Assembly: GCF_050920415.1 (NCBI RefSeq)
Contig: NZ_CP169309.1
Source of the DNA: Escherichia coli
Lineage (GTDB): Bacteria; Pseudomonadota; Gammaproteobacteria; Enterobacterales; Enterobacteriaceae
DNA length: 64,000 nucleotides
Strand: one strand, 5' to 3'
Part shown: piece by piece, positions 24,797 to 56,053 of the stretch
Layout: each line of letters opens with the position of its first letter
How positions within the stretch are numbered: position 1 is the stretch's first letter
Position numbers and translations under genes: made by a program
Notes under the pieces: model-generated
The model's database searches: none
What the model was told of the DNA's origin: nothing
The model's input: the letters and a program-made list of their open reading frames with translations, nothing else

Positions 24797-27145
24797 CTAC
24801 TCTTTTACTAATTTTCCACTTTTATCCCAGGCGGAGAATGGCATGGGTTTCTGGTACAGATACCCCTGAGCCTGAACACATCCTAATTTGATTAATTCGC
24901 GCGCAACGTCTTCGCTCTCTACGCCTTCCGCAATCACCGGGATCCGGTTATAGCGTGCCAGATCGAAAATAATGCGCACAATTTTCCCCGCAGTACCGAA
25001 AATATCGCCGGTAAATTGCGAGTCCACTTTTATACTGTCTGGATTAATTTCATAAAAACGTTTCAGGTTTGACAAACCGGTGCCAAAGTCATCAATCGAT
25101 ATCCGTACCCCTTGTTTACGCAGTTGTTCAATATTGAGATAAAAATGTTCATTAATTCGCTCGATCACAGTTTCAGTGATCTCAACACAGAGGCTGTTAG
25201 CCTTCAGGCTATTTTCTTTCATGATGGTGGTAAAACGCTCATGAAAGTGTGGTTCGTTTAACTGCCAGGGCGAAACATTAATATGCAGTAAGAAACCGTC
25301 CTTCAGCGACGCACGCTGACTAAAATGTCTGAATTCACCCATTGCCGTTTTAATAATCTGATAACCCAGCTCATTGATAAACCCGATATCTTCAGCAATG
25401 GTAATGAACTTCAGCGGTGAAATGATCCCCCGCTCCGCAGACACCCAACGGCACAACGCCTCCGCCCCCAGAATGGCGCGGGTGTTAATATCAACGATCG
25501 GTTGATAGACCAGGAATAGTTCGCCAATTTCCATTGCATGGCGAATATTACGCGCAATCCAAATATTCTCTTCTATTTCGTTGAGTTTCGCGTCATCACA
25601 GAAAATAAACTCTGAGAACATATGGTCACGGATACTGGAAATCGCCAGTTTCAGTTTTTCTGCGTAACTCCAGGCGTTTTCTCCCTTCAACGGTTCACAA
25701 ATGGCAGACTTATGGATGCGCAGATTGCGGTAGCCAAAGCTGCTGTCAAAATCGTTTATCATCGCTATTTTACGGGTAAATGTCTGTACATTTTCCCGGC
25801 ACAGAAGTAAATAGAGATCGGCATTAAATGTCACGATATCGCAGCATTGCGCATATTTCTCGGCAATTCGCTGACACAATTTCCTGACGATTTTATTGCG
25901 TTCATCAACACCAAACACCGCTTCCACGGCTTCCAGACCACACAGTTTGATGATCCCCACAGCCAGATACTGATTATTGTTGGACTCAATAATCGCCATA
26001 TTTTTAATAAAACCGCTTTCCTGATCGTAAGAGATCAGTGAGAGCAATTTATTTGACCGTTCAATTTCGGCATCTTTCATTTCCGCGATCGAATTTTTGA
26101 TGCTGATAATCTCTTTCGCATCGCCTTCGCGAATTTTCAGAGCCTCGATTTGATCCGTTGAGTCGGGCAAAAATGCCAGCGTATTAACCAGCTCGGTCAT
26201 TTCAGAAAATTGCCGACGGAACACACGAGTGGTCATTAAATAAACCACCAGCAATACGATAATAATGAAAGCAAACGGCAGATAAAAAAGTTTATCTGAT
26301 GCGTTCAATAAATTACCGCCAGGATAATAAAAATAGATTTCGAATAATGCGTTGTTTGGCACCACTGATGTTTTTTCGATATATTCAGTATCGACAGAAT
26401 CAATAATATTATAATTGCCTTCGCTATTATAAATAATCAGTTTTTCACGAGCGAGTTGATTCTTGGCAATGATCTCATGGCCTTGTTTCAAAAATAGAAC
26501 TTCATCATTAGCGCTGATTTGATCAAGATACTCGTTCAGATATCGCCAGTTTAAATCGACATGAATTTTATCCACCACTAACAAATCGTGATCTTTGCCG
26601 TTGATGCGTAGCGTAAAAGAGATACATTTTTTACCCGGACGATCAAAGCAATTGTATGCCGGATTCCAGCTGTTGTTAGAGTCATCTGAAGCCACAGACC
26701 ACGGTCGTTTCGATGGGTTAAAATCGGCAAAAATAACCCGCCCTGACTCGTCGACAAGCGGTCCATTTACTTGTTCCTGATGATAAACAGCGATTTTATC
26801 ATTTGCCCTCCGCGAAAAGAGATAATATTTATTATTATCAAGTACCAGTCCCACCGAGTCTAAAAATGGCATCATTTCCATTTTAAGGATCACAGCGCGT
26901 TGAATCTCCTCTGTATTTTTTAATAAATACAGTGAGTCCTTTAATGTCAGGGCCGAACGTTCAATATCTTTAAAGAAATAGCCAACGTTTTTCTGAATAA
27001 GTTCAAAGCGGCTATCGGCACGTTTTACCGCGCGTTCCGATACCAGTTGATAGTTAATGATGAAAAAAAGACCAATAAATGACAGCGCTGCCAATAAAAA
27101 TAAAATTATCAACCTTATTTTTATCTTTTCGTATAAACTCAGCAT
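24797..27145 (-). CDS. pdeI: c-di-GMP phosphodiesterase PdeI (YliE), membrane EAL protein
   Basis: 782-aa ORF with TM segments and a C-terminal EAL-type domain; synteny. Confidence 0.9.
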
Positions 27146-27320
27146 GTTAATACATTTAACAAAATAACTATCTGAACGCCGTGCCGCTGCAAAAATAGTC
27201 CCGCTGCGGCTTTTTAACCAAATTACCCGATTCTACAAAATCAGCAGAAAGTTACAACACTTGCTTTGGGTAATAATTTCCTGTGAGGTGATTACCCTTT
27301 CAAGCAATATTCAAACGTAA

Positions 27321-28232
27321 CTATCCTTTAATTTTCGGATCCAGCGCATCGCGTAAACCATCCCCCAGCAAATTGAACGCCAGTACGGTCAAAAAAATAG
27401 CCAGGGCCGGAAAAACAGCGACATGCGGCGCGATAACCATATCCGCTCGAGCCTCATTGAGCATCGCTCCCCACTCTGGTGTCGGCGGCTGCGCGCCGAG
27501 GCCGAGAAACGACAGGCTGGCCGCAGAGATAATCGAGGTACCAATGCGCATAGTGAAAAACACCACGATAGAAGAGACGGTCCCAGGCAGAATATGACGC
27601 AATAAAATGGTCATATCGCTGGCACCAATACTGCGTGCTGACTCAATAAAGGTTTGCTGTTTCAACACCAGCGTATTGCCGCGCACCAGTCGGGCAAACG
27701 CGGGGATGGAAAAAATGGCAACGGCGATAATCACGTTAGCGATGCCGCTTCCCAACACCGCAACAACAGCGATCGCCAGTAAAATACCCGGGAAGGCAAA
27801 CAGCACATCGCAAATGCGCATGATCAGCCGATCCCACCAGCCTTCATAATATCCCGCCAGCAAGCCCAGCAACGTCCCGATCGCCGCACCGATAAACACG
27901 GCAAACACGCCCGCCGCCAGCGAGATTTGCGCACCAACCAGGACACGACTGAAAATGTCGCGTCCCAGTGAATCGACGCCAAACCAGTGCTGCAAAGAAG
28001 GTCCGTTATTCAGATTGTCATAATCAAAATAATTTTCGGCGTCATAGGGAGCGATCCAGCGTGCAAAAATGGCCACCACAATCAATAAAATAACGAACAA
28101 TGCGGCGGTCATCGCCATATGCTGACGGCGAAATCGTCGCCAGAATTCATGCCACGGTGTACGTACCTGGTCAGGTTTAACCAATGGCATGGCGTTTAAC
28201 ACCGCCTGACGTCGCCAGTTAAATATTCGCAT
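27321..28232 (-). CDS. gsiD: Glutathione ABC transporter permease GsiD
   Basis: 303-aa permease ORF; operon with gsiABC. Confidence 0.93.
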
Positions 28233-45461: not shown

Positions 45462-46580
45462 CTAGCTGGCCGGGAACATAACTAACAAAACGTATCCCAC
45501 CAGCGCCGCCCACAACAGCATCGGTATTGAATAGAGATGGAAACGCCACCAGATACGGCGATCGTTTGCCATCCGTAACGCAATCAAATTTGCCAGCGAT
45601 CCGGGTAATAAACCAAAGCCACCCACGTTTACCGCCCATGCCAGTAATAAAGACGGTGGCACATAATTGAGCAGCAAAATCGTGCTCGGCACGTTACTGA
45701 TCACCTGCGATAAACCAATTGCCGTTAACCATAATCCGGGTTCGGATAAATGGCTCACATTGCTCAACACGCCCTGCAAAGCTGGCAGTTGGGTCAGCAA
45801 ATGGACGTCGATAAACATCGCCATAAATACCAGCAGCAGAGTCCAGTCCACGCTGATCACCACGCGACGAGCCAGCAGCGCAAAGCCCGCCGCTACAATC
45901 ACCAGTCCCCACAGCTCTTGTTTTAACTCCAGCGCCGTCAGAAAGACGATATACAGCCCCAGACAACTCCACACCAGCCGCGGTTTCCACTCAGGTGTTT
46001 GCGCCCCCGTATGATATTGCAGCGCCTTTCCAGGGAAACAACACCAGCACAGTAGCAGGAGTGTCAGCATCATTGCGCCAGCCAGCGGTGCCATTTGGGC
46101 AATAAACCCGGCAAACGAAAGACCAGAACGACCCCAGATAAGAATATTTTGCGGGTTGCCAATCGGCGTCAGTAGCGAACCCGCATTGACTGCCAGCGCC
46201 TCAAAAATAATCAGTCGATTAACCGGGATCTCACACAGTCTTTTTAGTGTGATTGTCAGCGGAACAACAATAAACAGCGCGACATCGTTGGTCAGAAATG
46301 TTGAAAGCAACGCCGCCGCCAGCACCATAAACATTGCCAGCCGACGCTCAGTAGCAAAGCGGCGCACCATTTTGCGCCCCAGCACATCAAAATAACCGCT
46401 TAACTCCACACCTTTGGTCAGCAGCATCAGGCCACTGAGGGTGATGATAGTGTGCCAGTCGATAGCAGCAAGCCAGGATTTCGGTGCAAAGGGAACGAAA
46501 AAACTTAATCCGATGCCAACAAGAATTAATAACTGAAAAAAGCGATCGCCTTGTAGCGTGCGTAAAAAAGGCAGGCTCAT
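45462..46580 (-). CDS. ybiR: Putative anion permease YbiR (ArsB/NhaD superfamily)
   Basis: 372-aa multi-TM ORF; ATGA overlap with the mntR stop. Confidence 0.9.
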
Positions 46581-47044
46581 TTGGCACCGTGTTTCTGGGT
46601 AAACAAACGAAAGGCATCCAGCGTCTCTTCACTGACATGGTGCTCCATGCCTTCCGCGTCGCGACGAGCGATTTCCGGGCTGACGCCCAACACCAACAAG
46701 AAATTTTCGACTATCTGATGTCGCTCGCGGCTTTCCTGCGCCAGTTTCTCTCCTTCTGCCGTTAAAAACACGCCACGCCAGGGGATCATTTCAATCAGCC
46801 CCATGGTTGCCAGTCGTTTGAGCATTTTAGCCACCGTCGGTTGCGAAACGCCCAGACGAGCAGCCATGTCCACCTGACGAGCTTCCCCCACTTCCCTGAT
46901 CAAGTCAGAAATCAGCTCAACGTAATCATCAATAAGCTCGCGCCGGTGTGCCTCTCTGACCTGGCGGAACCCTTCAACGTGCTCTTCCACATTCACTAAC
47001 TGCGTCACTTTTTTTGCTGTTGGCGTACCTGCGCGACGACTCAT
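46577..47044 (-). CDS. mntR: Manganese-responsive transcriptional regulator MntR (DtxR family)
   Basis: 155-aa [25 protein letters not shown] matching recalled MntR. Confidence 0.95.
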
Positions 47045-47409
47045 TGTGCTTCCTCATTATGGTGACGCATACATAGCGTTCTCATTTCGTGCGCACATTG
47101 TAAACCAGAGTTGCGAAGGTACAAAAAATTAACGTTTTAGCAATAGCTATATAATATAGCTTTGGACCCCAATAAAAACCAAATGAAAACAATTAATTAT
47201 GAAAGAAATATCATTGTAATGTCGCAAGAATGTCGCAGAATTTTGAATTTTACATCAAACAGAAATCTTACATAAGTCGTCGAAAAGGAAAACTACCAAT
47301 ATCTTTTCGGTGTTTCCTTTCCCCAAATGGAATTTTTCCTGTTATGCTAATATTCGTTTTAAGGTGTTGATAACTAACATTACACAAAGCAATTAGAACG
47401 GATACTAAC

Positions 47410-48984
47410 ATGGCTAAAAACGCAAAAAACGAGAAACCAAAAAAGTTAGCTTATAGAATAAAAAGTATTAATATTGAAAAATTAAAAGGTATAAATAACT
47501 GCCCTATTTCCTTCCCAGCAGACAGGTCTGTAACTGCTATAATGGGAATTAATGGTTCAGGTAAATCAACAATATTGCACGCTCTATCATGTGTTTTCAA
47601 ACCCAAAGAAAAATCATCCCAAGAAAATAATAGATTTTCTGACTTCTTTACCCCTCACAATGAAAATAACTGGCAAGATAGTAAATTCTCAGTAAAATTT
47701 CGAGCGGGAGAGATAAAAAACAATGGTAATAAAGTCTTTTTTGAAGAAATAGATAATGAAGAAAAGAAAGATATTGTTTATGGCAAGGATAAAAGGTGGA
47801 AACCAGTTTACGCAAGAAGACTTGAAAGAGAATCTATATATATAGGATTACAAAATCTTGCAACGTTAGCTGACAATACAGGAGCATCAAGATACTCAGA
47901 ATATGAAAGAGTAGATATTTATGATAAAGATATAAAGAATCAAATGATATTAGCTCTGAATAAAATCTTAGATGCAGATTACAACGATTTGTTTGAATGC
48001 CGCACCATTAAGGGAAACAAAAAATTCATAGGCATGGTTAAAAACGGCATTGAGTATACAGAACATACTATGGGTGCTGGAGAAAAGAGAGTCTTTGAGA
48101 TAGTTAAAAATGTTTATAATGGAAAGTTAATGCCCAATGGTTTTCTAATCATTGATGAAATAGATGTTTTGCTACATGAAAGAGCTTTTCATGAATTAAT
48201 TAATTTTCTTATCGAAGAAAGCAAGTCTATGTGTTTTGAGGTTGTTTTCACAACACATAGAGAATCCATAATAAAGTTTAAAAATCAAATCAATATAGTA
48301 AGTATATGGAACATAGGGAATGGAATAGAGGCTTATCCCGGCGTTTCTGCGGATGCTCTTCGACAGATATCCAATGTAGAACCTGATATGGTCAATGTGT
48401 TTGTAGAAGACAACTTAGCAAAAACAGCACTAAATATTTTAGTTGAAAGTGAAGGTATGAATGAACAAGTTGATATCTCGCTTTTTGGTTCGGCTGAGAA
48501 TTCAGCTGTAATTTTGTCAGGACTTAAATTAACTGGCAAACGAATTGATACAAGCCTGGCAATTTTAGACGGTGATTACTATATTACCCTCCCTGAAAAG
48601 ACCAAAATGGTTGATAGAGTGTTATCTGGAACAGATAAAAAAGTAGAAAAAAAAGAAGTCTTATCAAGAATATTCCAATTCAATTTAGATGTGACTGACG
48701 TCAAAGGCTCTCCAGAAAAAAACCATCGTGATTGGTTTGAATCTATAGACGAAAACAATATTTCGGAAAATGATAAGACAATGTTTCTTAACCTGAAAAA
48801 ACATTCTACAAGTATTGGTGCTTTAACTGATTATCATGAATATTATCCAGAGTTAGCTCGAAGGTCAAAATTAGATAATATTGAGTACAAAGTTTTGAAT
48901 TATATTAGTAAGTATAGTAATAAATGGGATTTTTACATAAATGATATTAGAAATGAAATAAAAAAAGCAATTGCAGCGATCTAA
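47410..48984 (+). CDS. ABC-type ATPase fused to a TOPRIM-like domain; class-1 OLD-family-like nuclease, candidate anti-phage defence protein
   Basis: 524-aa ORF in AT-rich DNA. Walker A GINGSGKST (aa 46-54), signature-like MGAGEKR (221-227), Walker B FLIIDEID (245-252), H-loop TTHR (281-284), then a TOPRIM-like Glu (FVEDN, E333) and DxD (LDGDY, 387-389). Own terminator downstream. Confidence 0.6.
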   Translation: MAKNAKNEKPKKLAYRIKSINIEKLKGINNCPISFPADRSVTAIMGINGSGKSTILHALSCVFKPKEKSSQENNRFSDFFTPHNENNWQDSKFSVKFRAGEIKNNGNKVFFEEIDNEEKKDIVYGKDKRWKPVYARRLERESIYIGLQNLATLADNTGASRYSEYERVDIYDKDIKNQMILALNKILDADYNDLFECRTIKGNKKFIGMVKNGIEYTEHTMGAGEKRVFEIVKNVYNGKLMPNGFLIIDEIDVLLHERAFHELINFLIEESKSMCFEVVFTTHRESIIKFKNQINIVSIWNIGNGIEAYPGVSADALRQISNVEPDMVNVFVEDNLAKTALNILVESEGMNEQVDISLFGSAENSAVILSGLKLTGKRIDTSLAILDGDYYITLPEKTKMVDRVLSGTDKKVEKKEVLSRIFQFNLDVTDVKGSPEKNHRDWFESIDENNISENDKTMFLNLKKHSTSIGALTDYHEYYPELARRSKLDNIEYKVLNYISKYSNKWDFYINDIRNEIKKAIAAI

Positions 48985-48991
48985 ACCTCAT

Positions 48992-49021
48992 AAAAGGCGT
49001 AATTTATACGCCTTTTTTTAA
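48992..49021 (+). terminator. Rho-independent terminator after the OLD-like gene
   Basis: Hairpin AAAAGGCGTAATTTATACGCCTTTT followed by a T-run, 8 nt after the stop. Confidence 0.55.
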
Positions 49022-49181
49022 GGTTTAAATTATAGTTGCTAATTTCTACTCTTTGTTCCCTCTGTTCGTGCACGTTTCAGGTAGTAAGCTCTCCATCGAA
49101 CCATAGAGATTGAACGCTTTGATTTTTTTTTACATACTGTCTGAAGCTCATTTACTAAGTATTGATAGTCAGGATGACAAC

Positions 49182-49808
49182 ATGACCTCCTACGATGAAC
49201 TTAAAGAATGCATCCGCCTTGAAGTCATTGGCCATGACAAATCCTTTTCATGGCGTAAAGCGTTACTTCGTACCCGACGCAACCAGAAGAAGCACTTCCT
49301 GTTCTGGTGGCGTATCGCTTCATGGCTCTATGGCCAGAATAGTAAGTTCAAAAAGCGCATTGCCCGCAGAATTGAAAACCGCCTCAAGTACCTGCATAGC
49401 GTTGATATTTCGCTGTCATGCAAAATCGGCAAGGGTTTAAACATTGCTCATCTGAACGGTATTGTCATTACTGACAATTGCGTGATTGGTGATTTCGCCG
49501 ACCTGAAGCAAGGCATCACCATAGGGTTACGCACCGACAGTGCCGACGCGATGATAGTCATTGGTGATCATGTTGATATTGGCTGTAATTCGTCCATTCT
49601 GGGCGGCAAGGTTACGATCGGAAACAATGTCACCATTGGGGCGCATTCACTGGTACTTCAGAACATCCCCAGCGACACCGTTTATAAAAACAAGATCACG
49701 CCGGTGTATACATCCAAACTACCGCAGCAGGAATATCAGGAAAATCGGCCTTTTGTCACTGGCAAGGCGATAAAAGAAGCGTCCCGTTCCGCAGAAGCGG
49801 TGCTGTAA
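49182..49808 (+). CDS. Hexapeptide-repeat (left-handed beta-helix) acetyltransferase, CysE/WcaB-like
   Basis: Start MTSYDELKE preceded by AGGATG; the 232-aa track start at 49110 has no RBS. N-terminal helical region (RIASWLY...RIARRIENRLKYLHSVDI) then hexapeptide repeats IGKGLNIAH-GIVITDNCVIGD-ITIG-IVIGDHVDIG-VTIGNNVTIGAHSLVL. Confidence 0.6.
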   Translation: MTSYDELKECIRLEVIGHDKSFSWRKALLRTRRNQKKHFLFWWRIASWLYGQNSKFKKRIARRIENRLKYLHSVDISLSCKIGKGLNIAHLNGIVITDNCVIGDFADLKQGITIGLRTDSADAMIVIGDHVDIGCNSSILGGKVTIGNNVTIGAHSLVLQNIPSDTVYKNKITPVYTSKLPQQEYQENRPFVTGKAIKEASRSAEAVL

Positions 49809-50186
49809 TTTCGCTGAACAAATTTCAGTTATGAAGATTGCATAAATTTACGTGCAGCCCGCGCCAGCTCTTACAAGCGGGCTAATCTCTATAATGTCTG
49901 GCTTATCTCCCAACGATCCACGAACACCGCCTAAAATATAATTTTCCCTTTATTATCTGTGCGTTATGATTTTACACCGATCCTTAACAGATCCTCTTTA
50001 CTGAAAAAAATGAAATTTCTTTCAATCATTTCAGTTCCTGTTCTCCGCAAAGCCGCCAGTAATGGTGCGGTCTGGCGCTCTGGTTTGTAGAAAAATAAAA
50101 CTGAAAAAATTTCCAGATCCAGAAACCGCAGGCGGGTGCGGTGTAGCGCCGTTTTTGTCTGCGAAAGATTTATTTTGTCGGCGCAT

Positions 50187-50230
50187 CGCAGCGCCAGCGC
50201 AGCGCCAGCGCAGCGCCAGCGCAGCGCCAT
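50187..50230. repeat. Four tandem copies of an 11-bp unit CGCAGCGCCAG
   Basis: Direct reading: cgcagcgccag x3 then cgcagcgccat, in the non-coding gap between the acetyltransferase and the tail operon. Confidence 0.8.
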
Positions 50231-50315
50231 GCGCACGATCTTTTATGTGTGTTGCGTTGGGTTAATTTGTTGCCTGAAGTGCTGAGGGCGCGTTCTGCTG
50301 CGTCTGAGGAAGGGT

Positions 50316-50342
50316 ATGAAAAAGCCCGCATTATGCGGGCGT
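50316..50342 (-). terminator. Rho-independent terminator at the end of the tail operon
   Basis: On the minus strand, hairpin GCCCGCATAATGCGGGC followed by TTTTTC, 10 nt after the stop of the 567-aa gene. Confidence 0.5.
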
Positions 50343-50352
50343 GTTGTCATGG

Positions 50353-52056
50353 TCAGGCAATTATATTCTGGTACTTGCTCCGGGTCTGCCCTGCTTTCGT
50401 CGCCGTCTGTACGAACGCGTCAGCATTGGTTGGCGTCCCAACAGTGGGGTGTGAATGGTTCGCGCATTGCTGCGCCAGCTCTGCCAGTAAATCAATGGTA
50501 TCCAGCATCATGGTCAGGGCGTTGATACTCTCGCTGCCAATATGGACAGTTGCCCCCATGACCTGCTGACCGCCAGCGGCCACTGATTTACGCAGTGCGG
50601 CAATCTTCTCTGTCAGGCTTTCGCCAACCTCCACGGCTACAGCACCGCCCACTTTAGTGGACTGCTGTCCTGCTATGTCCGTTTCTTCGTTTCCTTCAAT
50701 ACTGGCCAGCCTGTTTCCTTTCACCGCCTGGCTATAATCACCGGCGCTTACCTGCTGGATGGCTCCGGCCAGCAGTGTGGCGGTTCCCAGTACCGTGGTT
50801 TTATCCGTGGCTTTCACCGTGGTTTCACGGCTGACCAGTTCGCGCTGTTCCGTATCGGCTTTTACGGTTCGCGCCATCGATGTTTCGCTGATGGTCTGAT
50901 CGGTCTGCCTTACCCAGTCGCCCGCCTGAGTCACCCTCTGGGATACTTCTTCCCGCTGCTGCTGCAACTGTTCACCGGGTTTAACGTCCGGCAGACTGGT
51001 GCCATCCGGTAGCGTCTGCCTGATAAAAGGTTTATCCGGTCTGCCTCCCGTGAATGCAACCTCAACCAGCGTCCCTTCTGGCGGAAACTGAAACATACCT
51101 GAATCATTCCCGGCCATTGGTACCGGCAGCGGCACCGCTGAATAAACAGGCGTCTGATTGTCCGGGTTTCCGTCTGCGTCAAGCAGCTGCACGTCCACGG
51201 CGTAACGTGGCCGGAAGGGATCGGCAAAGTTACCGCTTTTTACCGGCTCTGAATGCGCCACAACTCTGGCCATCTTTGGCAAATGAAGCCCGGATGCCAG
51301 TTCCGGGTAATGGCTTTCAATCTGCCGTTGCGCCGGTGTTTTCTGCAAAGGTTTACCCGTTGCGCGGTTTCTCGGCGTCCATGTGATCGCCATCGCGTCA
51401 TTAGTCAGGTGAACTTTAGTCACGCGTTCACCGTTCATCTCCACCCCTGGCCGCATAGTCTGGATCACTGGTAATGTCACAGAGTTACCGCCAGCAGCCC
51501 CCTGGCTGAACTCTGACGGGATTTCTACGGGGCGACCGGCAAATAATGACTTTTCTGCGCCGCCGACGTAAAGCGAACCATCAGGCAACTGGTACCAGAT
51601 GTAATCCTGGATACTGAACGCCCTTCCCAGATTGTTCAGCAACTGATAACCAGTACCGTTATGGGTAAAATGTGGGATGGGGGTATCGCTGTACTGTGCA
51701 TCAGGCACACTGACCGTGATCCCGCTGTTTTCTTCCAGCCAGCTGGCAACCTCGCGTAAAGTTGGATGTTGAAATGAGCACGGCCACATCCTTTCAAATA
51801 CACCTGCCAGCTCACGAATGAACAGACGCTGAAAACCGTTTTCAGCGGGCTGCGATCGCTCCACATACCCCGTAAACCAGCGCAAAAGCAGATCGGTATA
51901 CCCCACATCCAGCCGCACCAGTTTTCCGGTGTAATCGGTTGTTGTCTCTGCGGTGATGAAGCCCCGGCCGCAGCTGTTCAGCTCCAGTACCAGGCTGGCA
52001 TCCACCAGGTGAACTTCATCAGTTGAAAGGTAAAGGCGTTTTACTGGTTTCATCAT
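50353..52056 (-). CDS. Phage tail hub/spike-like protein (gpV/VgrG-type OB-fold candidate)
   Basis: 567-aa ORF, last gene of the tail operon; internal segment GTLVEVAFTGGRPDKPFIRQTLPDG resembles the G-x-V-x-V-x-F-x-G-D-x-D-x-P-x-I motif of gpV/gp5/VgrG spikes; Ala/Gly/Thr-rich C-terminal region. Confidence 0.4.
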   Translation of the reverse strand: MMKPVKRLYLSTDEVHLVDASLVLELNSCGRGFITAETTTDYTGKLVRLDVGYTDLLLRWFTGYVERSQPAENGFQRLFIRELAGVFERMWPCSFQHPTLREVASWLEENSGITVSVPDAQYSDTPIPHFTHNGTGYQLLNNLGRAFSIQDYIWYQLPDGSLYVGGAEKSLFAGRPVEIPSEFSQGAAGGNSVTLPVIQTMRPGVEMNGERVTKVHLTNDAMAITWTPRNRATGKPLQKTPAQRQIESHYPELASGLHLPKMARVVAHSEPVKSGNFADPFRPRYAVDVQLLDADGNPDNQTPVYSAVPLPVPMAGNDSGMFQFPPEGTLVEVAFTGGRPDKPFIRQTLPDGTSLPDVKPGEQLQQQREEVSQRVTQAGDWVRQTDQTISETSMARTVKADTEQRELVSRETTVKATDKTTVLGTATLLAGAIQQVSAGDYSQAVKGNRLASIEGNEETDIAGQQSTKVGGAVAVEVGESLTEKIAALRKSVAAGGQQVMGATVHIGSESINALTMMLDTIDLLAELAQQCANHSHPTVGTPTNADAFVQTATKAGQTRSKYQNIIA

Positions 52057-52601
52057 TAACCCAAAGCATCATTGACGGGCTTCAGCACCTTGCGTTCAAA
52101 CCACGTCAGTTTTTCTTCATCTTCTCCGGCAGACTGGCCACCGGACTGTCCCGCACTGCCGGTAGTCTGTTTTTTTGCGGTCGTCTTACCTGTTGCCCTG
52201 GCCTCTCGCTTTTCCTGCACGCTGATATGTTCCGCCAGTGTGAATGTCACCAGCCAGGCCATTTTCCCGTCCTGCTGGGGTGCATCCAGCATTCCGCTGA
52301 ACGTTGCTTCACGAAAATTAACAGCACGGGCAACTTCATGCGCCACGCGGTACTTCTGACGATTACCACTGGCATCGGTAGCACTGGCCAGCTCAAAAAT
52401 ACGCTTCAGTATTTCAGGCTGTTTAAAAGGTATTTCACCGCTGATCCGCAGTTCCTTTCCCTTTGCTCCCTGCTCTGATTTTGTTGTGGCGCTGGTCTGG
52501 CCGGACTGATCTTTATCCTGAAATTGCTGTGAAACAGTCACCCGCATGTTTTTCAGCTGGATGGCCTCGCCATTAAGCGCCAGTGTCGGGATCGAAGTCA
52601 T
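52056..52601 (-). CDS. Phage protein of unknown function within the tail operon
   Basis: 181-aa ORF translationally coupled to neighbours; no recognisable motif; Lys/Gln/Gly-rich C-terminus. Confidence 0.35.
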   Translation of the reverse strand: MTSIPTLALNGEAIQLKNMRVTVSQQFQDKDQSGQTSATTKSEQGAKGKELRISGEIPFKQPEILKRIFELASATDASGNRQKYRVAHEVARAVNFREATFSGMLDAPQQDGKMAWLVTFTLAEHISVQEKREARATGKTTAKKQTTGSAGQSGGQSAGEDEEKLTWFERKVLKPVNDALG

Positions 52602-53298
52602 GAATCATTCCCTTTATTCCATCAAGATTATCGCCAACCAGCATCATGGCAGCGGTGTAAACGGCAGACTGCTGCGGAATGTCCTTCACCAGTTCCAGTA
52701 ACGTGGTGCCGGTGTCTCCGCTGGCAGTAAAAACCCACACTCTGGCACTCTTTCCCTGTAAATCATTCAGGCCGCTGGCTACATCACTGATAAGCTGGTC
52801 ACGCAGCTGCGTGAACTCGCCCAGCTGTTTTTTCAGCCCTTCGATATCAAACCCGGCATCCGCCGCCTTTTGTGCCTGGCTGATTGCCGTAGCAGATAAA
52901 GCTGCCCTGCTGGTTGGTACAGACAGCGGAATGGACGCAGGTAACGCTGCGGCGGTTTTCGCAGGGATCTGCATCTTTTCAATAGCCAGCGCTGCGGCGG
53001 ATTGCGCCAGTCGTTTGACCTGCGTGAATGCCGGGGCGGGGAAAATCCCGACCAGGTTATTCAGGCTGGCCATAAAGTTTTCCTGTGTCTGTCCGGTGAC
53101 CATCATAATCACCACGTCCGCATTCCCCCCAGTTCCGGCCAGGCGTTCAGCAAGATAGCGAACGGCATTAACCGGGCTGAGATATGCCCCGTTCGCAGTC
53201 TGCTGTCCCAGCCCATAAATCCACGGATGCGCAGGAACGATCGAACAGTTCAGCGCAGCAACAGAATCCGTGAAGGCCAGACGTGCTTCACGCCACAT
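52573..53298 (-). CDS. Phage protein of unknown function within the tail operon
   Basis: ORF 52573-53334; start chosen at MWREARL to minimise overlap with tfa; no recognisable motif. Confidence 0.3.
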   Translation of the reverse strand: MWREARLAFTDSVAALNCSIVPAHPWIYGLGQQTANGAYLSPVNAVRYLAERLAGTGGNADVVIMMVTGQTQENFMASLNNLVGIFPAPAFTQVKRLAQSAAALAIEKMQIPAKTAAALPASIPLSVPTSRAALSATAISQAQKAADAGFDIEGLKKQLGEFTQLRDQLISDVASGLNDLQGKSARVWVFTASGDTGTTLLELVKDIPQQSAVYTAAMMLVGDNLDGIKGMIHDFDPDTGA

Positions 53299-53875
53299 TT
53301 CCAGGCACCTCCGGCCACACAATTTCCGGCGCATCTTCCGGTTGAATACGGTTCAGTAAAACGCGGTATTTTTTCCAGGCGGTAAGCAGCAGTGCTTCTT
53401 CTTCAGTCGCCATGTCTAAATCAACGGCATCCTGCAATGTGGCAATGGCGTCATTGGCCTGTTTAAGCAGTCTTTTCTTTTCGGCGTCTGCCTCGCTGAC
53501 TAATGCAATTCGCATGGCCTCCGCATCATCCACCCACGCCTTACCATTCCATTTTTGCCAGGCATTAGCCGGTGCAGACGTGGTTGTCCCTTCCGGGTAA
53601 GCGCCTGGCTCGGTGATCACCAGTTCATTACCGTTTTCTGTATCAAACACCACCTCACCACGATGATCCTCACGGGAAATCCATCTTTGCTTCTCTGAAT
53701 CAAAAATTGCCACAAACCCCGCTTTGATTACCGGTGGTTTTATTGTGGTGCAGTTAGCTGGTAGTCCGGTATGCGCAGGTATAAAAGCGTCACCCGAACC
53801 AATAAATTCATTCGTGTCGGAACGCAGGTTATAAACAGTAACTATTTGATCGGTTTCACTCATTTTAAAAGTCAT
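53288..53875 (-). CDS. Tail fiber assembly protein (Tfa family)
   Basis: 195 aa; close resemblance to recalled E. coli TfaE/TfaQ-type proteins (NEFIGSGDAFIPAHTGLPAN ... KWNGKAWV ... LLTAWKKYRVLLNRIQPEDAPEIVWPEVP). Confidence 0.8.
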   Translation of the reverse strand: MTFKMSETDQIVTVYNLRSDTNEFIGSGDAFIPAHTGLPANCTTIKPPVIKAGFVAIFDSEKQRWISREDHRGEVVFDTENGNELVITEPGAYPEGTTTSAPANAWQKWNGKAWVDDAEAMRIALVSEADAEKKRLLKQANDAIATLQDAVDLDMATEEEALLLTAWKKYRVLLNRIQPEDAPEIVWPEVPGNVA

Positions 53876-55449
53876 TATGCGAGTCTCACTATGTAGTTAA
53901 ATGCAATATTCTTAACGGTCGTTTCTGCGTTGCCCGACGCGGCGACGGTAATGGTGTGGCTATGTGCGCCAATTGCCACGGTATGAGAGTGAGCGCCAAT
54001 ACCTACGGTGTGATTATGTGCACCAATGGCTACGGTGTGCGCGTGGTTTCCCGCCGAACTGGTGGCGGCTCGCCCCTGATCGCTACGTGGTACCCCCCAG
54101 TCACTACCACCTGATTGCACGTTCCCGCCATAACCAATGGTGTGCGTATGCGCTCCCGTGGTATTTGTCGTTTTCGTGCCATAGTCAAACGTGCTCGCCG
54201 TTTTAGTACCGTAATCAAAGGACGATGTTGGTTTTGTCCCCAGATCGGTACTGGATGCACTGGCTGTGTGGTCATGAGATTTATTGCCATCATCTTCATA
54301 GGAGAGAACTGCGCGACCGTCTGGCTTTCCTTTGATTGTCTGGCGGCGCATGTCAGTAATAACACCCGATGGATACGCAGCAGCCAGCAAAGGATATGCC
54401 GCCGTATTAAAAGACTGCCCCTGCATAATTGCCCATCCAGTAGGTGGGATATCCGTTGGCCATGGAAGCGGCACACCAACCGGCAGAACATCACTGCGAC
54501 TTAAAACGGCCAGTTCACCCAGATCCAGACTTTTTCTTGCTTTTACTTTGTCGTTAACATCAGCAAGGTTTGCATCCTTACGCAAAAAATCGCTGCTGGC
54601 CTGCTGTTCTCCCAGGCTACCTTTTGGCCTTAAATCCGTGATGTTGCCATCCGCATCAATGCTGGCCACAGCAAACACATAATGCTGAACCCCGTTCTGA
54701 ACGTAATCAGCAAGATTTGCAGCCACCGTGATTTTGCTCTGCACATTCCAGACACTGGTCAGCGTCCCTGTCCAGCACACATCCAGCCAGACTTTTACCG
54801 GCTTTGTCGTTACCGTAATATTCTGATTCGCAGCCAGTGACGCACGAAGTCCAGCCACATACCCCGTGCCTTTCGTGACAAAAAACTGATTTCCGGTTTT
54901 GGCTACCAGATACCCGTTACCAAAAAACGCCGCCGCGCCATAAATATCCATATTTTCCAGGCGCTGGCGCTCATCCATTCCGGCCATACGCGCTGTAAAA
55001 TCAATCTGCCATGTTTCAGCGGGTGTATTAATCCCGGTTTCCGTTTGTGCGCCGTTGTACTCCATCAGAAACGAGCGGGTCAGCACGTTCCCCTGTTGAC
55101 CTTCTTTTGTTTTCAGTTTCTGCTGTGATGGTGCATGGACAATCATTGCCAGAGTACCGCTGGCCTTATTGAGCAGACCGATCCAGTTAAAACTGAAATC
55201 ACCCACATCTGCGCCCAGCACTACGGAATAAACCACCCCGTTTTCATTCACCACACCGGTGCGGGTAACAGATTGCCGGTGAACAATCTGTGCTGTCGGG
55301 GGCAACGCTTCATTGCGGTCAACAGGTGTATCCGGGTTTAAATCCGGCACACTGGCAAAAACAAATTCATCCAGTAGTACCGGTTCACCCGTTGCGCCCT
55401 GCTGTGCTTTCCAGTTTTCAAACGCCAGTGTGATGGCTGTCTGTGACAT
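53875..55449 (-). CDS. Side tail fiber protein
   Basis: 524 aa; C-terminal HxH repeats [49 protein letters not shown] typical of Stf-family fibers; immediately upstream of tfa. Confidence 0.8.
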
Positions 55450-55459
55450 AAAAACCTCC

Positions 55460-56053
55460 TTACAAACTCGCGCTGAATGTTGCGCTGCGGGCTTCCGTCC
55501 CTGCTAACGTCGCCGGGTAAACCACATATTCCCCCTGATCCCACCCAGCCCTGATAACCAGGCTTTCAGACGTGATCACCTCAAACTGATAACGGCGGCA
55601 TGTTCGCCCGTACTGGCGGATTATCTGGATCAGCAGCTGCGTGTTGTCTGCAATCTGGCTGTCTGTAACCCGAACCAGAATCACATCCCAGTCGATATCC
55701 GGTTGCCGTTCTAACAGCTCCACATAACCAATTCCCAGCCGTTCAAAGATATTGATAAACCCCTCTACTGAACCGGCATCCCGCGCATTCACGAAGGCAA
55801 AAGCCACGCGTTTGCGGAACAGGGTCAACGGTTCACCATCAAAGCGGGTGATATCCCGGTCATAAGCCAGCAGATTCAGTAATGCCGGTGTACACGTCAG
55901 CGGATCAAACTGGTTCATTGGCCAGGTAACCCAGCCGTAAACCTCAGCCCAGAACCGCCGCGCCGCTTTCAGCAATTTCCCCGGTTCACCTTTATTCATC
56001 CAGGAAGGCAAGACCATCCCGGCCAGCTTTTTCATGAACTCATTCATTCTCAA
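55460..56053 (-). CDS. Tail protein, YmfQ/gpI-like (DUF2313-type)
   Basis: 197 aa between the baseplate J-like gene and the fiber, as for e14 ymfQ; family assignment is from memory only. Confidence 0.55.

Follow-up and report, generated by a model that had tools for sequence, protein, structure and literature searches.

A 64,000-nucleotide stretch of the Escherichia coli contig NZ_CP169309.1 (the window) passes from core chromosome into the tail genes of a phage, and about 3.3 kb of DNA, between mntR and the last tail gene, separates the two. To what does this DNA belong, and what kind of genes does it carry? Its landmarks, with protein lengths in amino acids (aa) and open reading frames (ORFs) numbered along the window, are the following.

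46577–47044, minus strand: mntR (NCBIfam PRK11050, 269 bits)
47410–48984, plus strand: ORF 1, 524 aa
49110/49182–49808, plus strand: ORF 2, 232 aa, or 208 aa from the RefSeq ATG at 49182
50353–52056, minus strand: baseplate/spike protein gene, 567 aa, last of the tail set, with further tail genes beyond

The ORF listing agrees with an earlier interpretation of the DNA letters (the sequence-only reading) that the two genes lie on the plus strand, opposed to the tail genes. Our analysis indicates that positions 47161–50352 are very probably the moron slot of an integrated Quadragintavirus, filled by two independent cassettes, one encoding a probable defence ATPase-nuclease and the other an acetyltransferase.

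Comparison with other E. coli genomes located the junction between chromosome and prophage. A megablast search with 46400–50600 matched 5,421 of 5,426 complete E. coli genomes, and in 5,420 of the 5,421 the match ends at query position 761, equal to window position 47160, with both cargo genes absent; in K-12-like genomes, mntS and opgE come next. The core chromosome, which the sequence-only reading had ended at 47045, continues in E. coli identity to 47160. The single full-length match, AHB29, contains an island 95% identical to ours with the same two genes, and it carries a complete P2-family prophage with cI and int at the end adjoining mntS. The sole other complete genome with both genes has the prophage as well. 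The sequence-only reading would have been refuted by finding the pair here, with host-like composition, in strains without the tail operon, and the comparison did not refute it. Alignment of the window with the AHB29 attL, the AHB29 attR and the empty K-12-like site set the boundary at 47160/47161. Two features mark this end.

47146–47160, no strand: attL core, the 15-bp palindrome GCTATATAATATAGC, duplicated core in the mntR–mntS intergenic alignment
47218–47241, plus strand: direct repeats AATGTCGCA(A/G), period 11, 2.3 copies (Tandem Repeats Finder, TRF)

The attR core in AHB29 reads GCTTTATAATATAGC. Repeats of the form ATGTCGCA occur just inside both prophage ends, at attR beside the integrase gene (AHB29), and the attL-side stretch up to 47237 is conserved in the relative SC434 despite its other cargo. 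The repeats at 47218–47241 are probably the integrase arm-type binding sites of attP. An att core followed by arm repeats, together spanning 47146–47241, places the island inside the prophage, directly beside attL.

Upstream of mntS, the attL palindrome GCTATATAATATAGC is flanked by two inverted repeats that resemble MntR boxes, TAGCAATAGCTA and ATAGCCTGTGCTAT (window 47100–47175; AHB29 locus L003, 15380–15670). In the integrated state, mntS retains only the right-hand MntR-box-like repeat, and the DNA upstream of it belongs to the phage. The prophage thus lies within the operator region of the manganese-regulated mntS promoter, and lysogens might differ in how manganese regulates mntS.

The identity of the phage is clear from its tail genes. 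Window positions 50353–64000 are 96.3–96.9% identical over 100% of their length to Escherichia phages ESSI2_ev129, ev015 and ev040 (Peduoviridae, Quadragintavirus), with ESSI2_ev129 at 96.9% over the 13.6-kb tail module, and 76% identical to Cronobacter phage ESSI-2. The gene order is that of the type phages, of which the tail half alone falls within the window. The 567-aa spike protein, whose homologue is annotated as a baseplate protein in ESSI2_ev129, is a full-length homologue of HP1 orf35 (40% identity, E = 2e-154), and its gene anchors the slot. By sequence, the prophage is a Quadragintavirus, that is, an ESSI-2/HP1-type member of the Peduoviridae. The ESSI2_ev phages are temperate coliphages from infant-gut viromes, reported to be rare in E. 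coli genomes (PMC6969025), and we found the tail module in 52 of the 5,426 complete genomes. We estimate the AHB29 prophage at ~31.8 kb between its att cores; the ESSI-2, ev129 and P2 records span 28.8–33.6 kb. The ESSI2_ev129 record runs int, 'serine acetyltransferase', small ORF and baseplate/spike gene, which makes the acetyltransferase part of a deposited phage genome record.

BLAST comparison of 47000–50400 with nine relatives revealed sharp slot borders. The segment from ~47240 to ~49985 is replaceable, and 49985–50182 and the terminator at ~50318–50345 are common to all nine, whatever their cargo or integration site; no other part of 47161–50317 is shared by all, and the relatives sharing 49985–50182 include prophages integrated elsewhere, either next to raiA in the vicinity of ssrA or next to ybjL. 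The left border is formed by attL and the integrase arm repeats (47146–47241), and the right border as follows.

49985–50182, no strand: conserved non-coding block, probable cos region (BLAST against relatives)
50128–50146, no strand: probable cos core GCAGGCGGGTGCGGTGTAG (conservation, ESSI-2 termini and HP1 position)

The 15-mer GCGGGTGCGGTGTAG is present at both ends of the linear Cronobacter phage ESSI-2 record. It occurs exactly in 11 of the 11 related prophages first examined and in 71 of 80 IMG/VR loci, which were those with spike proteins 76–99% identical to that of the window; 8 of the other 9 contigs end before the motif position. All 19 nt of GCAGGCGGGTGCGGTGTAG are invariant across 66 distinct sequences. 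The stop codon of the 567-aa spike gene lies ~206 bp from the 15-mer; in the HP1 record, orf33–orf34–orf35 end 192 bp before the right terminus, cosL occupies positions 1–9, attP 251–694, and int begins at 698. The P2 cosL GGCGAGGCGGGGAAAGCAC is loosely like the window sequence (11 of 19 positions by our own count). Conservation, position and the ESSI-2 termini together make it likely that 50128–50146 is the cos core, and with cos at this place the cargo slot would be the cos–attP interval.

A second optional insertion, of ~430 bp, was seen between cos and the spike gene in AHB29 (L001, 18949–19281), in two further relatives (L005 and L006) and in 12 IMG/VR loci. It encodes a 110-aa protein (WP_000787654.1) with a signal-peptide-like N terminus and no NCBIfam match, and is absent from the window. 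Several decayed relatives (L007 14640–15868, E. coli I3; L022, E89; L011; L023) have an IS1 or IS100 insertion, large internal deletions that fuse tail and capsid genes, or truncated spike genes; these keep the cargo slot and the cos block.

The contents of the slot vary widely between close relatives. In E. coli, we found the ATPase gene with the acetyltransferase gene; the acetyltransferase alone, in three allele types; an Acyl_transf_3 protein; HATPase_c, STAS and PIN genes together; a 470-aa PIN protein with a hypothetical protein; a 372-aa PIN protein; three hypothetical proteins with a DUF6338 protein; a 411-aa protein; and two small hypothetical proteins. The IMG/VR scan with the spike protein gave the 80 loci mentioned above, and the first cargo ORF beyond cos, available for 52 of them, fell into 38 protein clusters. 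Among 17 slot-cargo representatives scanned with PADLOC, 10 had matches, to the models AbiU, DzbA, HEC-04, ShosA, ShosT, RT, PDC-S64, PDC-S15, AbiJ and MTase_II (type II methylase), counted as nine types of system or component; PADLOC and NCBIfam scans of the cargo of eight E. coli relatives returned no matches. In sister phages (L032, as an ORF at 930–2402 beyond cos, L073 and L070), the cargo of this slot is canonical HEC-04 (678 bits), so two ATPase–TOPRIM clades that are 24–25% identical alternate at one locus. The sequence-only reading, which took the layout for that of a prophage-end hotspot of variable morons or defence genes, is well supported by this alternation of cargo and by the many known defence systems among the 38 families.

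One of these E. coli slots (L008 3943–5802, E. coli JNE25-001) holds three genes, one for a GHKL-type ATPase (Pfam HATPase_c) and two whose products RefSeq names as STAS-like and PIN-domain proteins. The trio resembles a partner-switching module coupled to a nuclease and had no PADLOC or NCBIfam match; it is a candidate defence system.

We next consider the first of the two cassettes, which comprises these features.

47242–49017, plus strand: ATPase–TOPRIM cassette (upstream region, gene and terminator), 31% GC, a block shared with an Enterobacter prophage
47410–48984, plus strand: ATPase–TOPRIM gene, 524 aa, with an ABC ATPase at residues ~15–300 and a predicted TOPRIM plus helical domain at ~325–524
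48992–49019, plus strand: intrinsic terminator of the ATPase gene, stem GGCGTA / TACGCC between an A-run and a T-run (read by eye)

The terminator was not listed by the terminator scan; the Enterobacter copy has an equivalent hairpin. The best of 72 PADLOC matches of the encoded protein was HEC-04 (E = 3.1e-33, 113 bits; residues 9–410 on profile positions 17–394 of 494), followed by ATPase-Toprim_I-B (1.3e-20, residues 19–464). Matches to Old (2.5e-11), AriA (2.2e-11), GajA and PtuA are confined to the P-loop region, and neither AriB nor AriAB was among the 25 best matches listed. Pfam returned SMC_N (best), AAA_15 and AAA_23, with no match to Toprim or DUF4435, and a sequence search against the PDB gave P-loop matches only. 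Over residues 17–426, the protein is 32% identical to a 518-aa IbfA-type plasmid protein. This comparator is encoded next to proQ on pVE-T9_2, which fits the published description of ibfA; a 523-aa ABC protein beside that ibfA was considered as a paralogue and proved unrelated. On the HEC-04 model, the window protein scores 113 bits, the IbfA-type protein 142 and the canonical HEC-04 of a sister phage 678, and the window protein and this canonical HEC-04 are 24–25% identical.

The Walker A, signature, Walker B and H-loop motifs of the ATPase are intact, as are the Glu and DxD of the TOPRIM metal site. In 63 homologues, we found the motifs GINGSGKST (K52), MGAGE (E225), IIDEID (D249/E250) and TTHR (H283) to be invariant, together with the TOPRIM metal-site residues E333 and D387-G-D389. 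An AlphaFold2 model of the protein (predicted local distance difference test score, pLDDT, 87) matched Rad50 (best), SMC and PtuA heads in Foldseek, with E values of 1e-11 to 1e-9, and also the full-length Thermus OLD nuclease. For the C-terminal domain (model pLDDT 90), the top two Foldseek matches were 6nk8; its profile found no match among PDB sequences, so the TOPRIM assignment is made at the level of the fold only. Taken at the level of sequence and predicted structure, the ATPase–TOPRIM protein is a distant clade of the HEC-04/IbfA single-gene architecture.

Homologues with 78–99% identity occur in Escherichia, the Enterobacter cloacae complex, Kosakonia and Cronobacter, and a clade with 50–53% identity is common in Klebsiella, Salmonella, Proteus and Yersinia. 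A 52%-identical homologue lies in a Klebsiella island with PIN/MazE and KAP NTPase genes, and no partner gene is conserved, the neighbours differing among the window, the Enterobacter prophage and the Klebsiella island. Six distant homologues of ~810–830 aa (P0080, P0089, P0090, P0097, P0112 and P0115) bear an N-terminal C5 DNA methylase domain (PF00145), a fusion that may point to some connection between these proteins and modification-dependent or restriction-like systems.

What does this protein do? Its best matches in Pfam (SMC_N) and Foldseek (Rad50) could also suit a DNA-maintenance or repair factor of the SMC/RecF/Rad50 kind, or the gene might be a selfish addiction module, and the IbfA authors speculate on other roles for distant homologues (PMC12111858). 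We consider such a non-defence role improbable: the coiled-coil arms are absent, the predicted TOPRIM nuclease domain is of the OLD/AriB type, the Klebsiella homologue sits beside a toxin–antitoxin pair and a KAP NTPase, the distribution is patchy and horizontally transferred, and the slot elsewhere holds AbiU, AbiJ, Dazbog, ShosTA and canonical HEC-04. By analogy with its published relatives, we favour a defence role, in which the ATPase–TOPRIM protein is probably an anti-phage abortive-infection nuclease.

The second cassette comprises the following.

49168–49985, plus strand: cassette 2, phage-like GC
49182–49808, plus strand: acetyltransferase gene, annotated 'serine O-acetyltransferase', 208-aa left-handed beta-helix (hexapeptide)
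49856–49883, plus strand: GC-rich hairpin AGCCCGC ... GCGGGCT without T-run (by eye), conserved in acetyltransferase-carrying relatives

The encoded enzyme matches phrog_2154 (1.4e-55), a PHROG family without assigned function; the Pfam scan found Hexapep only, and a PADLOC scan found no match. Its scores reach none of the curated NCBIfam cut-offs for EpsC, CysE and WcaB (TIGR01172, 82 bits against a cut-off of 210.65; NF008349, 61 against 397), so the annotation notwithstanding, it is not a true CysE. Alignment to CysE in the PDB covers the beta-helix part only, from CysE residue ~105–150. The acetyltransferase is the commonest slot cargo among the E. coli relatives examined, and its three allele types there are 44–48% identical to one another, with recombined 3' ends. 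Two relatives (L004 and L005) share the 3' end of the window gene from ~49617 (~88–89% DNA identity over window 49617–49808), while the 5' two-thirds differ (45–48% protein identity); this mosaicism indicates recombination inside the gene. In sister prophages at the raiA/ssrA site, an Acyl_transf_3 protein replaces the acetyltransferase. The Acyl_transf_3 Pfam family includes membrane O-antigen acetylases such as Oac and OafA. Because such a protein fills the same slot in sister phages, we infer for the window enzyme a possible role in lysogenic conversion or exclusion, by acetylating a sugar or another small acceptor.

Are the two genes one unit? In the Enterobacter cloacae complex, a prophage integrated beside mntR as here has the ATPase gene (85% protein identity) but no acetyltransferase gene; its DNA is 76% identical over 47001–49017, just past the ATPase terminator, and similarity returns at the cos block. 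Conversely, ev129, EH09, 1919D3 and LH13-b carry the acetyltransferase without the ATPase. Composition separates the two as well. The ATPase gene has 31.5% GC and 25% GC at third codon positions (GC3), and its GC is the minimum of the 64 kb (z = -6.1 against all 1575-bp windows outside the island); the acetyltransferase gene, with 47.7% GC and 56% GC3, is unremarkable, as 18% of same-size windows have an equal or lower GC. The flanking chromosome has 50.3% GC, the tail genes 53.1% and the last intergenic piece 47.4%. The compositionally distinct island of the sequence-only reading thus shrinks, under a sliding-window GC check, to the ATPase gene and does not extend to the acetyltransferase gene. 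Its statement that each gene has its own signals is borne out in part: the ATPase gene has a clear terminator at 48992–49019, the hairpin after the acetyltransferase gene lacks a T-run, and a consensus promoter scan placed no plus-strand hit upstream of either gene. Judged from these alignments, the two cargo genes are separate cassettes.

The genes are adjacent, on the same strand and found together in both genomes with the exact island (the window and AHB29), as would be expected if the ATPase-nuclease and the acetyltransferase formed one two-component system in which the latter served as modifier, antitoxin or effector. We regard this as highly unlikely, given that each gene is found alone at the same slot, that a terminator separates the genes, that their GC contents contrast (31.5% versus 47.7%) and that HEC-04 and IbfA function as single genes. 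Tandem integrations at a single att site are common, and the composition of the ATPase cassette is unlike that of phage and host alike, but it is just as improbable that the island is a chromosomal insertion unrelated to the prophage, such as what is left of an earlier element that used this att site and merely abuts the phage, since there is one att core (47146–47160) followed at once by the arm-type repeats that occur beside attR too, no second att copy occurs between the cargo and the tail genes, the deposited ev129 genome record includes the acetyltransferase, the AHB29 prophage (~31.8 kb) is within the 28.8–33.6-kb range of the phage records and, with the probable cos on the tail side of the cargo, excision by attL x attR recombination must carry the cargo.

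Together, these observations suggest how the moron slot and its two cassettes might work. In phages of this type, the genome runs cos, tail, head, replication, cI, int, attP, cargo and cos, so integration between mntR and mntS puts the cargo between attL and the cos/tail end. The slot would have acquired the first cassette, with its 31% GC, recently. As judged from published relatives, the lysogen would express the ATPase–TOPRIM protein, the ATPase part would sense an infecting phage and license the TOPRIM nuclease, and the nuclease would then abort the infection by damaging nucleic acid. This would shield the resident prophage from competitor phages. The hexapeptide enzyme, in turn, would acetylate a sugar or other small acceptor and so contribute to lysogenic conversion or exclusion.

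Several considerations weigh against this reading. The window protein is distant both from HEC-04 (113 versus 678 bits, 24–25% identity) and from IbfA (32%), so its target range, and even its substrate, may differ; the defence role of its clade is carried over from these relatives. Expression of the cargo genes in the lysogen is assumed, and a consensus promoter scan gave hits no commoner than in shuffled sequences, with none on the plus strand upstream of either cargo gene. The role of the acetyltransferase is a guess, for a protein with neither a PADLOC match nor a PHROG family of assigned function. The cos call draws on the 15-nt terminal redundancy of one record, possibly an assembly artefact, on conservation and on HP1 synteny, and one IMG/VR contig (L028) continues 1.2 kb past the spike gene without a match to GCGGGTGCGGTGTAG, even with two substitutions. 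Finally, the window stops partway through the prophage, which is presumed to be complete here by comparison with AHB29 and ev129.

The remaining DNA of the interval is accounted for by further features.

50187–50235, no strand: 11-bp tandem repeat CGCAGCGCCAG, 4.4 copies (TRF score 89), between the probable cos and the tail-operon terminator
50314–50340, minus strand: tail-operon intrinsic terminator (terminator scan: 7-bp stem, 6 GC, then TTTTT), conserved in relatives

Both had been noted in the sequence-only reading and both were recovered, the repeat by TRF and the terminator as a minus-strand hairpin at 50340–50324 plus its T-run. The same reading had put the AT-rich non-coding DNA at roughly 900 bp; we count ~1.1 kb in total (47045–47409, 48985–49181 and 49809–50352), of which 116 bp are chromosome, and the first two pieces are indeed AT-rich (31–35% GC) but the third is not (47% GC). 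Of these, 47045–47160 is the chromosomal mntR–mntS region and 47161–47409 includes the arm repeats and presumably the ATPase promoter; 48985–49181 consists of the ATPase terminator and a spacer found only in the window and AHB29; and 49809–50352 contains the conserved hairpin, the cos block, the 11-bp repeat and the tail terminator. Rather than filler, the non-coding DNA comprises attL, integrase arm sites, two terminators and the probable cos region. An Rfam scan of 46500–50800 at E <= 1 gave chance-level matches only, far below gathering scores, so the conserved block is not a known RNA. At least three tandem units of the 11-bp repeat were found in the window only, among 108 related sequences; relatives have one unit at most, and the repeat looks like a private local slippage expansion that is incidental. 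We also considered it as a phase-variation tract of the 110-aa ORF of the relatives and rejected this, the ORF being absent here and the repeat non-coding. The stretch with the second-lowest GC, 25000–27500 (39%), was likewise rejected as another island: it holds the core genes pdeI/dgcI, which all but one of the 5,426 E. coli genomes (5,425) share.

For the lysogen, these genes have probably meant a barrier to other phages, and it may carry altered surface or metabolite acetylation. More broadly, the evidence is about evenly balanced on whether the cos–attP interval of HP1/ESSI-2-type phages (Quadragintavirus, Seongnamvirus and relatives, in Escherichia, Enterobacter, Citrobacter and Salmonella) is a third, undescribed cos-adjacent defence hotspot, with an architecture unlike those of P2 and P4, whose uncharacterised residents have new anti-phage functions. 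If so, the new anti-phage residents would be the ATPase–TOPRIM clade, the phrog_2154 acetyltransferase, the GHKL-ATPase, STAS and PIN trio, two large PIN proteins and the 411-aa protein. Prophage hotspots are productive ground for new anti-phage systems, and this slot is easy to mine, having as its sharp borders an attP arm and a 19-nt invariant cos core; 52 viral contigs yielded 38 cargo families, several without any defence-model match.

Among known systems, the closest to the ATPase–TOPRIM protein are HEC-04 and IbfA. HEC-04 (Hma-embedded candidate 4; Payne et al.) is an ABC ATPase–TOPRIM protein that protects E. coli against T4, T5 and other coliphages and requires the Walker A lysine (K62) and an E319/D375/D377 metal site (bioRxiv 10.1101/2024.01.29.577857). 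IbfA, from the IncI1 plasmids R64/pUA1135, lowers burst size and efficiency of plating without lysis, an abortive-type phenotype (PMC12111858). Like the window protein, both are single polypeptides of ~490–525 aa on mobile elements, with an N-terminal ABC ATPase containing the Walker A lysine and a C-terminal TOPRIM domain with a Glu and a DxD motif. Unlike them, the window protein is prophage-borne, neither Hma-embedded nor on a plasmid, and its C-terminal helical part of ~100 residues aligns poorly with theirs. OLD, PARIS (AriA/AriB) and Gabija GajA differ from it in insert architecture and size, the Old, AriA and GajA models matching the P-loop only (1e-10 to 1e-11); AriB and AriAB are absent from its 25 best PADLOC matches and DUF4435 from its Pfam matches, and it has no partner gene. 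The acetyltransferase resembles the serotype-converting enzymes of temperate phages (Oac/OafA type) in being phage-borne at a prophage end, but is a soluble 208-aa hexapeptide enzyme rather than a membrane acyltransferase. Of the hexapeptide acetyltransferases WcaB, WbbJ and CysE, it aligns with CysE and WcaB in the beta-helix region, and it lacks the CysE N-terminal domain.

The slot itself is best compared with those of P2-like phages and P4 satellites, which have cos-adjacent defence hotspots, including the P2 old/tin locus (Rousset et al. 2022, PMC9122126). The P2 and P4 hotspots and the window slot alike are variable and cos-adjacent, hold many alternative cargos among close relatives, and are filled for the most part by small, often single-gene, anti-phage systems whose transcription does not depend on that of the phage late genes. 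The P2 slot is flanked by the replication gene A and the portal gene Q, the window slot by attP/int and the last tail gene. In HP1, the same cos–attP interval is ~250 bp long and without a gene; here, it holds cargo. A literature search found no description of a cos–attP cargo slot in HP1/ESSI-2-type phages, which does not prove it unpublished. The arrangement is thus of a known kind, a cos-adjacent Peduoviridae hotspot with a HEC-04/IbfA-type protein, seemingly undescribed in HP1/ESSI-2-type phages and involving no new principle. Its adjacency to cos, despite a cos position unlike that of P2, supports genome ends as generally favoured sites for accessory genes.

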